From the NCBI RefSeq assembly GCF_003334335.1, contig NZ_QOWQ01000021.1: a DNA stretch of 64,000 nt. One strand, 5' to 3'. The notes beneath the pieces are model-generated. The model was not told the origin of the DNA. It did not search any database and saw only the letters and a program-made list of their open reading frames with translations. Position 1 is the first letter of the stretch. Each line of letters opens with the position of its first letter. Positions 56,662 to 63,170 of this stretch are shown here, piece by piece. The stretch comes from Escherichia coli. Lineage in GTDB: Bacteria > Pseudomonadota > Gammaproteobacteria > Enterobacterales > Enterobacteriaceae. A program made the position numbers and the translations under genes.

Positions 56662-57663
56662 TTACCCTCTATTGTCAAAGGGATTCAGTTCAACAGCAGC
56701 CTCTAAATGACCCGGCGCAAAGTGTGCATAACGCATAGTCATTTTTATATCGCTATGCCCCAGTATTTTTTGCAACACAAGAATATTTCCTCCCCGCATC
56801 ATAAAATGGCTGGCAAACGTATGACGTAGCACATGAGTTAATTGTCCGTCAGGAAGTTCGATCTTTGCTCTCTTAATAGCGGCGTCAAAAGCCTCATAAC
56901 ATGGTGAAAAAAGCGCCCCGCGTTTTTTAGGAAGCATGGCCTGCAATTGAGGTGAAATAGGTACAGTGCGGTTCTTCTTTCCTTTGGTTTTAACAAATGT
57001 GATTCGTCCAGGCAGTATTTGAGATTGCTTTAATCCCTCTGCTTCACTCCACCTGGCACCAGTCGCAAGCCCAATACGGACGACAACACCCAAATCTTTA
57101 TTCCGTGACTCATCACATGCAATCAGAAGGCGTTCAATCTCATCTGCATACAGAAACGCCTGTTCCTTTTCTTCCTCACGAAACTTGCGAATACCTGTCA
57201 ATGGATTTTCACCAGACCACTCCCCAAGGCGCTTCAGTTCAGCAAAAACAGCATGTAAATATGACTGTTCGCGATTAACGGTTGCTTCACTAAGTTTTTT
57301 CTTCCCCTTTGGATTCCATTCACCTGATAACCGCCGCTCCCTGTAGATGGCAAACATATTTTTATCAAATTGAGAAGCAAACGGATCACCCAACCTAGAA
57401 CAAATCGCCTCAAGTTTAGCCTTGCGCTCTTCACCGGAAGACAACGTTTTACCGTACATTTCAAACCAGCGAGCAACCAACTCGGAAAGACGGGGGCCAG
57501 AACCATCCTGAAACTCGCCCCCTAAATTACCGTTCATTAAACGGCGCTCATAAGAGAGCGCCTCACCTTTAGTAGCAAACTGCTTACGAATGCGTTTTCC
57601 TGCTGCTCCGTAGGGATAGCATTCACAGAGCCATTTACCAGTAGATAGTTTACGAACAGACAT
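56662..57663 (-). CDS. int: Tyrosine-type integrase (P2/186-like N-terminus)
   Basis: MSVRKLSTGKWLCECYPYG... N-terminus; catalytic region LRHTFASHFMMRGG...MRYAHF. Confidence 0.85.
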   Translation of the reverse strand: MSVRKLSTGKWLCECYPYGAAGKRIRKQFATKGEALSYERRLMNGNLGGEFQDGSGPRLSELVARWFEMYGKTLSSGEERKAKLEAICSRLGDPFASQFDKNMFAIYRERRLSGEWNPKGKKKLSEATVNREQSYLHAVFAELKRLGEWSGENPLTGIRKFREEEKEQAFLYADEIERLLIACDESRNKDLGVVVRIGLATGARWSEAEGLKQSQILPGRITFVKTKGKKNRTVPISPQLQAMLPKKRGALFSPCYEAFDAAIKRAKIELPDGQLTHVLRHTFASHFMMRGGNILVLQKILGHSDIKMTMRYAHFAPGHLEAAVELNPFDNRG

Positions 57664-57697
57664 ATTAAAAAGTGCACACCAAGGAAAATTTTCGTGA

Positions 57698-57955
57698 TTA
57701 AGATGGTTGCTCAACCCGCATAAAGAGCTTTTCATCAACTAACTGCTCCCATTCATCGGGATCAAGCTCCCAAGAAGGAGCCGACATATCATCCTCATCC
57801 CCCTCATTTACAAAAGTAACCAAATAGAAAGGAAGATCTCCGGGCTCATCGTCATCGTCCTTGACAATATGAACATTAGTAACAACTATACGATTAGATG
57901 GATTAACTTTAGATACATATAAACCAATTAATGGAATTTGCGGATTAGTTACCAT
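57698..57955 (-). CDS. Small acidic hypothetical protein (85 aa)
   Basis: ORF between the membrane protein gene and int; Asp/Glu-rich. Confidence 0.45.
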   Translation of the reverse strand: MVTNPQIPLIGLYVSKVNPSNRIVVTNVHIVKDDDDEPGDLPFYLVTFVNEGDEDDMSAPSWELDPDEWEQLVDEKLFMRVEQPS

Positions 57956-58153
57956 AATTCATTTACCTCTTTGGACTTCCTCATGAACAAAGACTTACTT
58001 TTCTTTAAGACCATAACAAGTAATTCACACCATTTCTTACATCACTAGTTGCCCCCTCCCACCTTTGTCAGCTCGCTTAATTTATCTTTTTCATTTCTTT
58101 TAAAGTCGGTAAAGCAAGCTTTTGTCACAATATCTTTCTCCAACAACTATCTA

Positions 58154-58798
58154 TCAGAAAAGAACACTGCCTAATAAAACACCAACAACGAAACACATTC
58201 CTGTTTCTTTCGGGTATTTTCTAATTATTTGCTGAAAATTCATCTGTAATTGACTACCGGCAGAATTGTTGGCAGTTAATTTCTTTTCTCCTTCCACTGA
58301 TTGTTGGTCTAACCAGGAAAGAGCCATCTGAAGCTGAGAACGAGTAAGATCGTTTAAGCGACCCGTTCCGAAATTGATATGGCAATAGCGGATAAGTTTT
58401 TGACGAAGCACTCCATCTTCACTATTACGAAGTAAAATACTTACAAGCGCCTTACGCGCATCATGATCTTTACATCGTTCAAGCATCGCACACAGAAAGC
58501 TCTCTGCGGTCTTATATTGATTCATTGTTATATCATCAATACTGTCTACACCAATCTCTGCATGCAATTTTTGCCAAATAATAAACGCCTCGGTATTGCT
58601 GGCATCTACAATAGCAGCAACTAATCTATTTAATGCCTTCCGTTGCCCCTTAAGTAAGGGGCGTGGATCACTGTTATTGCTCGAAGGAATTGCGATATTG
58701 ACGGTATGAGAGCCATCATATCGCCCTATCTGAATATTCTTTTCTTGGTAATCTCGCCCAGCAATACGATTATCTGAACCGTTTGAGTTGACCGTCAT
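58154..58798 (-). CDS. Hypothetical protein with C-terminal TM anchor (214 aa); N-terminal NRIAGRDY motif shared with the upstream repressor
   Basis: Strong RBS AAGGAGGTG; C-terminal hydrophobic segment GMCFVVGVLLGSVLF; motif NGSDNRIAGRDYQE. Confidence 0.6.
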   Translation of the reverse strand: MTVNSNGSDNRIAGRDYQEKNIQIGRYDGSHTVNIAIPSSNNSDPRPLLKGQRKALNRLVAAIVDASNTEAFIIWQKLHAEIGVDSIDDITMNQYKTAESFLCAMLERCKDHDARKALVSILLRNSEDGVLRQKLIRYCHINFGTGRLNDLTRSQLQMALSWLDQQSVEGEKKLTANNSAGSQLQMNFQQIIRKYPKETGMCFVVGVLLGSVLF

Positions 58799-58813
58799 GC
58801 CACCTCCTTGCTA

Positions 58814-59218
58814 TCACTTACCCTTTGTTTCGTTATAGTCACGGCCTGCGATGCGGTTATTCCCGCCAGAGATATTTAACCCTCCCCCTGATGACTGACT
58901 CTCCTTTTCAGTGACTGCACCTTTCAAAGCACCAATCACCGCGTTTTTCACATCTAGTGAGGCACTCCGAAAACGTGTGATCAACTCCTGCTCATCATCG
59001 TTATAAGTTTCAGGTGAATGAATTCCCAACACGACATACTGAACATCAAGGCCAAAACGCGACAACGCTGATAAGTACGCCGCATCAGGAAAGCTATCCC
59101 CTTTCTCATATCTAAGTTGGGTTAACTTTTTAACCCCACCAATATCACTCATAGCGACTTGGCTAAGACCCAGCCGTTCCCTTTCCTCACGCAACCGTTG
59201 GCCAATATCATTTTTCAT
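58814..59218 (-). CDS. XRE-family HTH repressor (immunity repressor candidate) with Gly-rich C-terminal tail
   Basis: HTH LGLSQVAMSDIGGVKKLTQLRYEKG; divergent from the RHH gene; C-terminus ...GGNNRIAGRDYNETKGK. Confidence 0.7.
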   Translation of the reverse strand: MKNDIGQRLREERERLGLSQVAMSDIGGVKKLTQLRYEKGDSFPDAAYLSALSRFGLDVQYVVLGIHSPETYNDDEQELITRFRSASLDVKNAVIGALKGAVTEKESQSSGGGLNISGGNNRIAGRDYNETKGK

Positions 59219-59293
59219 ACAAAAACCTTGACAGGTATCTTTTTTGATACCAAAATACTTTCATGAGCCATTAGATGAACACAATATACCACT

Positions 59294-59512
59294 ATGAAAC
59301 AAGTTGTTCACGACACCAGATCACGGATTCCGCGTAACACAGCTACAGGACCGCGACTGGCACTTCGATTGTCAGCAGAAGAGCGAGCCGTCATTGATGA
59401 AATGGCAACTAAAGAACAGCGCTCATCCTCTAACATGGCACGCATGATCTTCCTTCGTGGCCTTGAGATTATCCAGAAAGAGCAAAACCAATCTTCATGC
59501 TCAGGAGGTTAA
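59294..59512 (+). CDS. Small ribbon-helix-helix/Cox-Apl-like DNA-binding protein
   Basis: 72 aa; RLALRLSAEERAVIDEMA resembles an RHH beta-strand/helix; divergent from the repressor. Confidence 0.5.
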   Translation: MKQVVHDTRSRIPRNTATGPRLALRLSAEERAVIDEMATKEQRSSSNMARMIFLRGLEIIQKEQNQSSCSGG

Positions 59513-61965: not shown

Positions 61966-62193
61966 ATGGTCGCCATCCTGAATGTGTGTTGCTGCCCCCC
62001 CCTGAACGTGGAAAGAAAAGCCCGCGCATCGCTGCGTTTATTCCGCGACGGCGTGCGGAATTTTTCACGCATAAAACCCCACGACTACCTGGTAATAAGA
62101 ATCGGTTTCCGCTGGCGATTACTGAGCAAAAACAACGGGGCGTCATGGGATTTATTAACGCACGAAACCTATAACAAAGAGGCCGCGTTATGA
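61966..62193 (+). CDS. DUF4222-like small phage protein
   Basis: FRWRLLSKNNGASWDLLTHETYNKEA, paralogous to the 11747-11965 product. Confidence 0.55.
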   Translation: MVAILNVCCCPPLNVERKARASLRLFRDGVRNFSRIKPHDYLVIRIGFRWRLLSKNNGASWDLLTHETYNKEAAL

Positions 62194-63170
62194 GCAAAGA
62201 ACTGTTATCCGGTACGCCACTGAAATGGGTGGGCGGAAAAAGCCGCATCATGAACACACTGAAGGCGCACCTGCCAGAAGCCGACTGTCTGGTTGAGCCG
62301 TTCGTGGGCGGCGCATCGGTATTCATGAACACCAGTTACAAGCGTTACATCCTGGGTGATTCCAATGGTGCGCTGATTAATTTCTACCGGCAAGCTAGGG
62401 ACAACACCGACAGCCTGATCGACGAGGCGAAAACCCTGTTCCTGAACCACAACAACAGGGGTGACTATCTCATCATTCGCGAAACCTTTAACGCAGAGAA
62501 TCATGCCTTCCTGAACAGCAGAACGGGAATAAGCGACCGCCGTGAACTGCGACTGGCCGCCATGTTTTTGTACCTGAACCGACACAGCTTTAACGGTTTG
62601 TTCCGCGTGAACGGAAAAGGCGATTTTAACGTGCCTTTCGGCTGCTACCGCAAGCCCTACTTCCCTGAGCGTGAAATCCGCGCATTTGCAGACAAGGCAA
62701 ACAGCACCCGAACGCTGCTTATCCACGCAGATTTTAAGGATACGCTGAACTCTGCCAGTCACCTGTTCGGCATGGGCAACACGCTTTGCGTGTACTGCGA
62801 TCCCCCTTACCTGCAATTCAGTGGCCGGGACAATTTTACCGCCTACGGAAAACCATTCGATGAAGACGAGCACGTTCGTCTGAGGGCAGCGCTTGACCGC
62901 CTTTCACAGGAAACGGGCGGCATGACCAGCATCACCATCTCCAATTCCGACACACCGGAAACACGACGCATTTATCGGGGTTACCGGATGAACTGCATAC
63001 AGGCACCACGAAGCGTTGGCGCAAGAACCCGGGAATCAGCACCGGAGGTTATCGCCACCCTGAGACAGTGCGACGCCTGCGGTCACCATGGCGGTGGCTA
63101 CTGCCCGGACTGCGGACCTGTAACGGGAGATGCAACTTACAGCGTGATGTTTACCCCTGCCAGTACGTGA
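62190..63170 (+). CDS. Phage DNA adenine methyltransferase (Dam-like) with C-terminal Cys-rich zinc ribbon
   Basis: Motif I PFVGGASVF, motif IV DPPY; C-terminal CDACGHHGGGYCPDCG. Confidence 0.85.
   Translation: MSKELLSGTPLKWVGGKSRIMNTLKAHLPEADCLVEPFVGGASVFMNTSYKRYILGDSNGALINFYRQARDNTDSLIDEAKTLFLNHNNRGDYLIIRETFNAENHAFLNSRTGISDRRELRLAAMFLYLNRHSFNGLFRVNGKGDFNVPFGCYRKPYFPEREIRAFADKANSTRTLLIHADFKDTLNSASHLFGMGNTLCVYCDPPYLQFSGRDNFTAYGKPFDEDEHVRLRAALDRLSQETGGMTSITISNSDTPETRRIYRGYRMNCIQAPRSVGARTRESAPEVIATLRQCDACGHHGGGYCPDCGPVTGDATYSVMFTPAST

Follow-up and report, generated by a model that had tools for sequence, protein, structure and literature searches.

The repressor–partner locus and its shared peptide

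The window analysed here is a 64-kb stretch of Escherichia coli DNA (contig NZ_QOWQ01000021.1), and the locus of interest is the left end of a P2-like prophage within it, adjoining yecA/tyrP. On the minus strand, from 56662 to 59218, this locus carries in order the gene for a 134-amino-acid (aa) repressor, an open reading frame (ORF) for a 214-aa protein, here called the partner, an ORF for an 85-aa acidic protein, and the integrase gene (Table 1). This arrangement, with a 15-nt gap and a strong ribosome-binding site between the first two genes, had been proposed by an earlier sequence-only reading, and both the ORFs and their coordinates were confirmed. The gap and its flanks read TGA TAG CAA GGA GGT GGC ATG; the tandem stops TGA TAG close the repressor ORF and are followed by the Shine–Dalgarno sequence of the partner gene. 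A sequence scan of the minus strand found no terminator-like site between the repressor and partner genes, and because none separates them the two are likely to be co-transcribed.

The repressor and its partner carry the same eight-residue peptide, NRIAGRDY, at their facing ends, the C-terminus of the repressor and the N-terminus of the partner. In a six-frame translation of the whole window this peptide occurred exactly twice, at these two sites, and, as the sequence-only reading had described, the copies use different codons; they differed at 8/8 codons, each at the third position. The similarity extends beyond the identical core to 17 residues (LNISGGNNRIAGRDYNE in the repressor, VNSNGSDNRIAGRDYQE in the partner), with a Smith–Waterman score of 61 vs 22.6 ± 4.5 for shuffled N-termini (z = 8.6). 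Fusion of the two ORFs by read-through or frameshifting was considered as a source of this arrangement and was ruled out by the tandem stops and by the variable, often out-of-frame gaps of related loci.

Among 120 partner homologues (from Escherichia, Klebsiella, Serratia, Enterobacter, Erwinia, Kosakonia and others), the N-terminus follows the pattern MxVNSxGxxNRxxGRD[FY]xENxIQIxxFDGxHTxNIAIPS, and the stretch before the membrane anchor is variable. The motif was also sought at repressor C-termini elsewhere, as the sequence-only reading had proposed, and a tail of the form ..INVSGxGNR[VI]AGRD[YF]NENKK was found to be kept in Escherichia, Klebsiella, Salmonella, Yersinia, Serratia, Dickeya and Erwinia. 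More distant repressors retain the helix-turn-helix (HTH) and the APLAVKAAALAALTAG helix, and have quite different, G/N/Q-rich tails. All motif-bearing repressor tails end in a Lys/Arg cluster (TKGK, NENKK, NKKNK, RRRKTK or GKGKKRK), found at 58817-58828 in the window and likewise in related loci; the cluster may serve, for instance, to contact the membrane or DNA.

Relative to the copies in the O157 prophage, the ratio of non-synonymous to synonymous substitution rates (dN/dS) was 0.05 in the repressor gene and 0.14 in the partner gene, with a dS of ~0.8, and 0.13–0.21 in the motif regions; both genes are under purifying selection. The same codon was used at 67/159 identical aligned residues, where codon usage predicts 72.8. 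Which codon encodes an identical residue is therefore random, and the sameness of the peptides is held by selection at the protein level. This codon test ruled out a recent DNA repeat or gene conversion and, together with the retention of the motif by homologues of both proteins across Enterobacterales, upheld the original proposal of conservation at the protein level.

The motifs are rich in G (14.5 %), N (10.6 %), V (10.5 %), Q (8.9 %) and I (8.1 %; V and I together 18.6 %), and contain 1.3 % L as against 11 % in the remainder of the proteins. Tandem motif copies were seen by eye in the partner N-termini of a few lineages and by pattern count in 3/61 family representatives, and are not claimed as a general feature.

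Judged from its profile matches and gene context, the 134-aa protein is the XRE-type lysogeny or immunity repressor of the prophage. It matched HTH_31 (E 4.3e-4) and HTH_3 (E 2e-3) in Pfam and PHROG 8 (E 3.8e-14), and a profile of its family matched the N-domain of the P22 C2 repressor in the PDB (E 2.8e-5). In this P2-like prophage its gene lies near int and is divergent from Arc-like and Cox-like early genes, a position at the lysis–lysogeny switch; in Mu-like phages, related repressors occupy the equivalent position opposite ner-like, transposase and MuB genes. No LexA-like peptidase domain was found in the repressor by Pfam search, and at 134 aa it is too short for one. AlphaFold returned the helices given in Table 1 and modelled the tail with a predicted local distance difference test (pLDDT) score of <50.

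The family of the partner, which the sequence-only reading did not recognise, was identified as Flk_N (PF27202 / PHROG 5825). The protein matched PHROG 5825 over its full length (E 5.6e-92), all of its close homologues carry a precomputed PF27202 assignment, and residues 38–168 matched the NCBIfam Flk model NF007987 (E 1.1e-15) at 57.8 bits vs an equivalog cut-off of 353. These matches identify it as a predicted tail-anchored inner-membrane protein of this family. Orthology with the flagellar regulator Flk was ruled out, given the score far below the cut-off, the length of 214 aa, the location in a prophage and the fact that chromosomal Flk forms a separate group lacking the N-terminal motif. 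No match was returned for the partner, or for a bitopic partner of the kind described below, from a copy of Pfam-A that does not include Flk_N, nor for the partner from a sequence search of the PDB; a marginal match to PHROG 245 (Ant; E 3.6e-4, residues 51–132) was accompanied by no match to Pfam ANT. Clustered at 50 % identity, Flk_N has just 90 representatives among 1.84 billion proteins, and this small family divides into a phage type with the motif and the longer chromosomal Flk without it. The phage proteins are 185–230 aa long, and their genes were directly downstream of a repressor gene wherever the context was checked, in P2-like and Mu-like loci.

An AlphaFold model of the partner, built on a 62-sequence alignment, had a mean pLDDT of 86, with an all-alpha region at residues 45–170 (pLDDT 96–98) and a low-confidence N-terminus (residues 1–44, pLDDT 53–65). 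The single C-terminal transmembrane (TM) helix of the sequence-only reading was recovered in this model, the last 16–19 residues being hydrophobic, and homologues share the layout. As the anchor sits at the C-terminus, the rest of the protein would be cytoplasmic; Flk likewise combines a cytoplasmic body with a C-terminal inner-membrane anchor (PMC13344023). A further suggestion, that the partner is an exclusion gene of the rexAB/sieB type, had been drawn only from its position and was not sustained. Neither PHROG, NCBIfam nor Pfam gave any exclusion or defence homologue of the partner (RexAB, SieB and similar), and PADLOC assigned 0 defence families to the 214-aa and 85-aa proteins.

Table 1. 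Features of the repressor–partner locus, and partner architectures found in this and other phages
Feature	Position	Strand	Description
Repressor gene	58814..59218	-	134 aa; XRE-type HTH at residues 1-66, conserved helix ~74-105, flexible G/N-rich tail ending in basic cluster
Repressor C-terminal motif LNISGGNNRIAGRDYNE	58829..58879	-	Residues 114-130; identical core NRIAGRDY at 58835-58858 (residues 121-128)
Shine–Dalgarno AAGGAGGTG of partner gene	58801..58809	-	Read from sequence, inside the 15-nt gap
Partner gene	58154..58798	-	214 aa; N-terminal motif region, Flk_N all-alpha domain, C-terminal membrane anchor
Partner N-terminal motif VNSNGSDNRIAGRDYQE	58742..58792	-	Residues 3-19; identical core at 58748-58771 (residues 10-17)
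Flk_N helical domain	58289..58666	-	Residues ~45-170
C-terminal TM anchor	58157..58213	-	Residues 196-214; hydrophobic segment GMCFVVGVLLGSVLF at extreme C-terminus, AlphaFold helix 196-213
85-aa acidic DUF8087 / PHROG 17127 ORF	57698..57955	-	Between partner gene and int
Integrase gene	56662-57663 (RefSeq start)	-	Context, outside the module
Promoter-like site TGAACA-16-TATATT with upstream TG	59283..59310	-	Ahead of the repressor–partner operon; consensus scan only
Arc-like ORF	59294-59512	+	PHROG 3431, E 2.2e-28; divergent early gene
Cox-like ORF	59457/59517-59720	+	PHROG 575, E 5.7e-27; divergent early gene
Partner architecture 1			Tail-anchored Flk_N proteins
Partner architecture 2			Bitopic: motif region, Flk_N-like segment, coiled coil, one TM helix, ~60-aa periplasmic domain with two conserved Cys; PHROG 6521, including BcepMu gp18
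Partner architecture 3			Small two-TM proteins (L005, L042, L071)
Partner architecture 4	L203, pair at 4005-4815	+	128-aa Zn-ribbon and two-TM protein, NRVAGRDY motif
Partner architecture 5	L183, pair at 2936-4076	-	187-aa multi-TM protein

Covariation of repressor tails and partner N-termini

The genomic context of distant repressors was combined with 160 IMG/VR loci, giving 142 loci with 61 distinct pairs and 23 tail classes. One class (L082, with a frameshifted repressor gene) was left out, and the remaining 22 classes were tested with non-matching controls kept. The classes come from P2-like and Mu-like phages, including those of E. coli O157, Klebsiella, Pectobacterium and Gilliamella as well as BcepMu.

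The tails of the repressors and the N-termini of their partners were found to co-evolve, class by class. The mean score between a tail and its cognate N-terminus was 38.3, compared with 24.0 for non-cognate combinations. None of 200,000 permutations (0/200,000) reached the observed sum of 843, the best permuted sum being 731, which gives p<=5e-6, a value that overstates independence since the classes share ancestry. The cognate N-terminus was the best match for 8/22 tails (p = 3e-6 under random ranking), and in the first data set of 11 classes the permutation test gave p<=1e-5. Aligned motif cores were 53 % identical within pairs.

The matched peptides differ widely between phages. A Mu-like phage of Pectobacterium has the pair QIFNGDISGQFAGNQIIN / QEFNGTAQGQFSSRDIIN, of the FNGxxxGQFxxxxIIN type, and Gilliamella phages have QIAGGNIY / QIAGRDIY and QVSAENIYN / QVAANNIYN. 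Other pairs are QVFHGAVSGGVAARDIINNPG / QEFQGNVDGGVAGRDIVNQAPG (L070), LNFNGPVGTAFSGDATI / LNFHAPVEYAAGGDVKI (L066), APGGHAAGRDM / APEGYAAGRDI (L148) and QVFHGSVGQAV / QEFNKPVGQAI in gp17/gp18 of BcepMu. In most pairs the genes are collinear, with intergenic gaps of -4 to +34 nt. Two negative controls behaved as such: a tail-less relative of the repressor (L084) is followed by a protein without a match, and chromosomal Flk lacks the motif.

Nearly every matched pair includes a membrane protein, and these fall into at least five unrelated architectures (Table 1). In the layouts examined, the tail anchor, the positive-inside rule or the two-TM hairpin would place the motif in the cytoplasm. The bitopic partners at L086, L061, L065, L066, L070 and L075 (PHROG 6521) share the pattern C.F.G..Y..GS.IDN..A.D..C in their periplasmic end domain of ~60 aa, for which Pfam gave no match; L086 (3088-4283) is the gp17/gp18 locus of Burkholderia phage BcepMu. 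PHROG files this family under the category 'moron'. The loci L203 and L183 belong to high-GC transposable phages and carry the same NRVAGRDY motif pair, with repressors from a more distant subfamily and partners that are unrelated.

Interpretation of the matched motifs

The sequence-only reading had suggested that the common peptide is a shared interaction, cleavage or degron signal. The functional link contained in this suggestion stands, by the covariation over 22 classes; a cleavage or degron signal read by the host is less likely, as phages of one host group use differing classes. The repressor/membrane-protein module with its matched motifs is real and general, and is undescribed as far as the literature was searched. 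Searches on repressors and amyloid, Flk and prophages, and P2-like repressors and membrane proteins found no prior description, and the amyloid-signalling literature searched made no mention of HTH, repressor or Flk. The repressor and partner genes form one immunity module, and the recurrence of a shared motif with differing peptides in many unrelated phages points to a physical link, so far undescribed, between the lysogeny switch and the membrane.

The reading that we favour, which is plausible if somewhat short of probable, is that the repressor is docked through a homotypic beta-type motif on its cognate membrane protein, and that this protein, a sensor or anchor, controls how much repressor is available. 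Motif copies of ~17–20 residues, rich in G, N, Q, V and I, would pair directly with each other, through beta-strand addition or templated cross-beta stacking, and thereby hold the repressor at its membrane protein. Direct homotypic pairing is suggested because the peptide must equal that of the partner yet drifts between lineages, as in-register beta pairing predicts. The membrane protein would be the input, as an anchor or as a sensor of membrane or envelope state, because the repressor is the conserved output and the partners are diverse, some with a periplasmic domain. In the uninduced lysogen both motifs would be unstructured and the pair silent. Upon a trigger, e.g. clustering, the partner would capture or convert the repressor tail, free repressor would fall and the switch would tip to induction; control of the repressor by the partner, and the signal itself, are what we infer here.

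A rather unlikely but possible stronger form is a prion-like induction switch, in which the N-terminal motif of a clustered sensor would nucleate a cross-beta fold, template the repressor tail, strip the repressor irreversibly from DNA and commit the cell to lysis. If this were so, amyloid signalling would extend from cell-death effectors to the transcriptional control of a viral life-cycle decision, P2-like and BcepMu-like prophages would have an induction route independent of the SOS response, and the motif class would set which prophages cross-talk.

Several observations weigh against a matched pair that docks the repressor at the membrane. Four of the 22 classes (L140, L092, L165 and L065) fail, and the cognate scores of L092, L165 and L065 are at chance level (L065: 22, z 0.3). 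L140 (IMG/VR 2579778545_000006) has a typical FHGPVGQAAQGDIKN repressor tail and, as the next ORF, a signal-peptide protein without the motif; its partner may be elsewhere or lost. Fine-scale covariation within the NRxAGRD[YF] class was not significant among 26 distinct core pairs (position 3, p=0.54; Y/F position, p=0.09), and the matching therefore operates at class level, tolerating conservative I/V/A and Y/F exchanges. The 22 classes are, moreover, not fully independent, their sequences having common ancestry. When repressor and partner were joined by a (GGGGS)6 linker and modelled with AlphaFold, both motifs came out as disordered (pLDDT <50) with no predicted contact, a result that is uninformative rather than negative. 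The alignment was partly paired (11 true pairs plus unpaired homologues), and MAFFT set the N-terminal motifs of unpaired partners under the repressor tail. Charged residues (R and D) are also present in the motif of the window and are less usual in amyloid cores, and co-expression of a repressor with its own sequesterer requires a trigger.

Control could run in reverse, with the membrane protein as an effector of exclusion, abortive infection or lysis timing; the repressor tail would cap its N-terminal motif and block self-association, and loss of the repressor would free the effector. A homotypic motif permits partner–partner as well as partner–repressor association, some partners are small 2-TM proteins resembling holins or toxins (L005, L042, L071 and L203), and in the amyloid-signalling pairs already described it is the membrane-acting protein that serves as effector. 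The gene position is also common for prophage morons and exclusion genes, in line with the 'moron' label of PHROG 6521. Even so we consider this unlikely: PADLOC gave no defence match, nothing in the tail-anchored Flk_N type is obviously membrane-damaging, and the periplasmic two-Cys domain of the bitopic partners resembles an input more than an output. The rule for BASS pairs, in which the effector motif is C-terminal and the sensor motif N-terminal, would moreover make the repressor the effector.

To a similar degree, it is doubtful that the motifs never touch and instead mimic each other. Here the tail would bind a third phage-encoded surface, most plausibly the repressor core, in oligomerization or autoinhibition, and the partner N-terminus would be a membrane-tethered competitor. 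One common pocket would explain identical peptides, among the other components the repressor core alone is present in all pairs, including those whose partners lack Flk_N, and antirepressors that bind repressors are well known, e.g. those of Gifsy (PMC3121763). A conserved pocket should, however, conserve its ligand, and the core is conserved between classes (RLREERERLGLSQ, APLAVKAAALAALTAG; 40–65 % identity) while the motif differs almost completely; nor does AlphaFold show the tail docked on the core.

Less probable again is a terminal signal read by the host, namely a common degron or tag for a membrane-associated protease or chaperone (FtsH, or ClpXP or Lon with an adaptor), by which turnover of the two proteins would be coupled or the partner would serve as a protective decoy. 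FtsH substrates include lambda CII, the membrane location of the partners would put them near FtsH, and both motifs are at free termini in disordered segments, where processive proteases start. Such a signal should be alike within a host group, whereas the phages of Enterobacterales have NRxAGRD[YF] or FNGxxxGQFxxxxIIN and those of Gilliamella have at least three classes, with the two copies matched inside each pair. FtsH recognition is loose, and under loose recognition nothing would hold both copies alike. That the motifs are a functionless relic of some old event at the gene junction, either a duplication or a gene fission, is barely credible. The E. coli-type ORFs do lie in the same frame, 15 nt apart, but they are separated by tandem stops, and the gaps elsewhere (-4, 2, 22, 32 and 34 nt) are not all in frame. 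Synonymous sites are randomized while the peptide is kept, with the low dN/dS of the motif regions given above, and the match survives across 18 or more diverged classes and through five architectures of the partner.

Docking of the repressor by its partner would have its closest likeness in amyloid-signalling pairs, represented by fungal HET-S/NWD2, the bacterial Bell/NLR pairs BASS1-10 and E. coli Bab/Agp. BASS1-10 pairs have collinear genes with very short gaps or overlaps and a shared C-terminal/N-terminal motif (10.1101/2020.01.06.895854), and fibrils and templating have been demonstrated for Bab/Agp with BASS11 (10.1101/2024.11.07.622273). The pairs described here are alike in the motif of ~20 residues spanning adjacent collinear genes with tiny gaps, in richness in G, N, Q and V/I, in diverse motif families matched per pair, and in one partner acting at the membrane. 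They differ in that the C-terminal motif is on a DNA-binding prophage repressor rather than a Bell/HeLo pore-former, and the N-terminal motif is on a small membrane protein (Flk_N or other) rather than an NLR/STAND or TPR sensor. The motifs of the known pairs are predicted beta-arches, whereas AlphaFold gave a low-confidence coil here and the E. coli motif includes R and D. By analogy, the repressor–partner pair follows a BASS-like gene-pair logic with new domains, and it is not filed as a BASS member because its domain partners differ from a Bell/HeLo effector and an NLR/STAND sensor.

Other comparisons are more partial. Flk resembles the partner in its homologous Flk_N domain, cytoplasmic body and C-terminal anchor, acts as a membrane-tethered protein–protein regulator, as the partner would, and differs in being chromosomal, 326–490 aa long as against 185–230 aa, and in starting with MQP(L/V)SGP... 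without a G/N-rich N-terminal motif. Antirepressors (P22 Ant, 186 Tum, Gifsy GfoA/GfhA, CTX RS1 RstC and VP882 Qtip) are like the favoured model in that a small phage protein inactivates a repressor without cleavage, and RstC and Qtip are reported to aggregate or sequester their repressors. Inactivation without cleavage is needed here since the repressor is too short for, and lacks, a LexA-like peptidase domain. Known antirepressors are, however, soluble, separately transcribed under SOS or quorum control and not known to share a peptide with the repressor, whereas the candidate here is membrane-anchored and probably co-transcribed, and would be recognized by its matched motif. Extracytoplasmic function (ECF) sigma/anti-sigma pairs and Mlc–PtsG resemble the proposed docking in that the next gene of the operon after that of the regulator encodes a membrane protein, and the regulator would be held by the cytoplasmic N-terminal portion of this protein; some partners here have a periplasmic domain that could sense the envelope. 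They differ in that no anti-sigma homology is present here, the shared element is a short peptide and not a folded domain, and the repressor must be free in the resting lysogen.

To our knowledge, induction sensing by prophages that lack a LexA-like self-cleaving repressor is understood for only a few systems. The matched peptide is a concrete handle on whether lysogeny is wired to the envelope and whether matched-motif, possibly amyloid-like, signalling works outside cell death, and with the pairing the phage branch of Flk_N gains a first functional context. The early operon of BcepMu is derepressed by H2O2 through an unexplained mechanism (PMC2830190); we regard this as a lead and not as evidence on the repressor–partner module.

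Distribution and neighbouring features

Of the 5,426 complete genomes of E. coli, 519 carried the pair, O157:H7 among them, and a single partner cluster from Klebsiella was found on 754 contigs. The module also occurs in Salmonella, Yersinia, Serratia, plant pathogens and the model Burkholderia phage BcepMu. Phage 520873 (L255, NC_049344.1) is the only cultured phage record in GenBank with an E. coli-type pair. Its partner gene is in three pieces and its integrase gene in two; these splits are probably frameshift errors in the record and uninformative on dispensability.

In the O157 prophage a DUF2511 gene replaces the DUF8087 gene and the repressor–partner pair is retained. The 85-aa DUF8087 protein is therefore exchangeable cargo and lies outside the repressor–partner module.

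Upstream of the repressor gene, a plus-strand promoter-like site at 59228-59256 faces the minus-strand site listed in Table 1, both from the consensus scan. The count of promoter-like sites in the region was not above the shuffled expectation, and the promoter of the repressor operon is accordingly a putative feature. In this switch region, RefSeq annotates the near-identical strain JNEC-KY204 with a 45-aa ORF at 59308-59445 (-) in place of the 72-aa plus-strand ORF that matches the Arc-like PHROG 3431, and the opposite-strand call is probably a mis-annotation. Further into the early region of the same prophage, RefSeq annotates a 75-aa ORF at 61966-62193 (+) as "ParE family toxin-like protein"; this ORF and the start of the gene for a 326-aa DNA adenine methylase at 62190-63170 (+) overlap by 4 nt.

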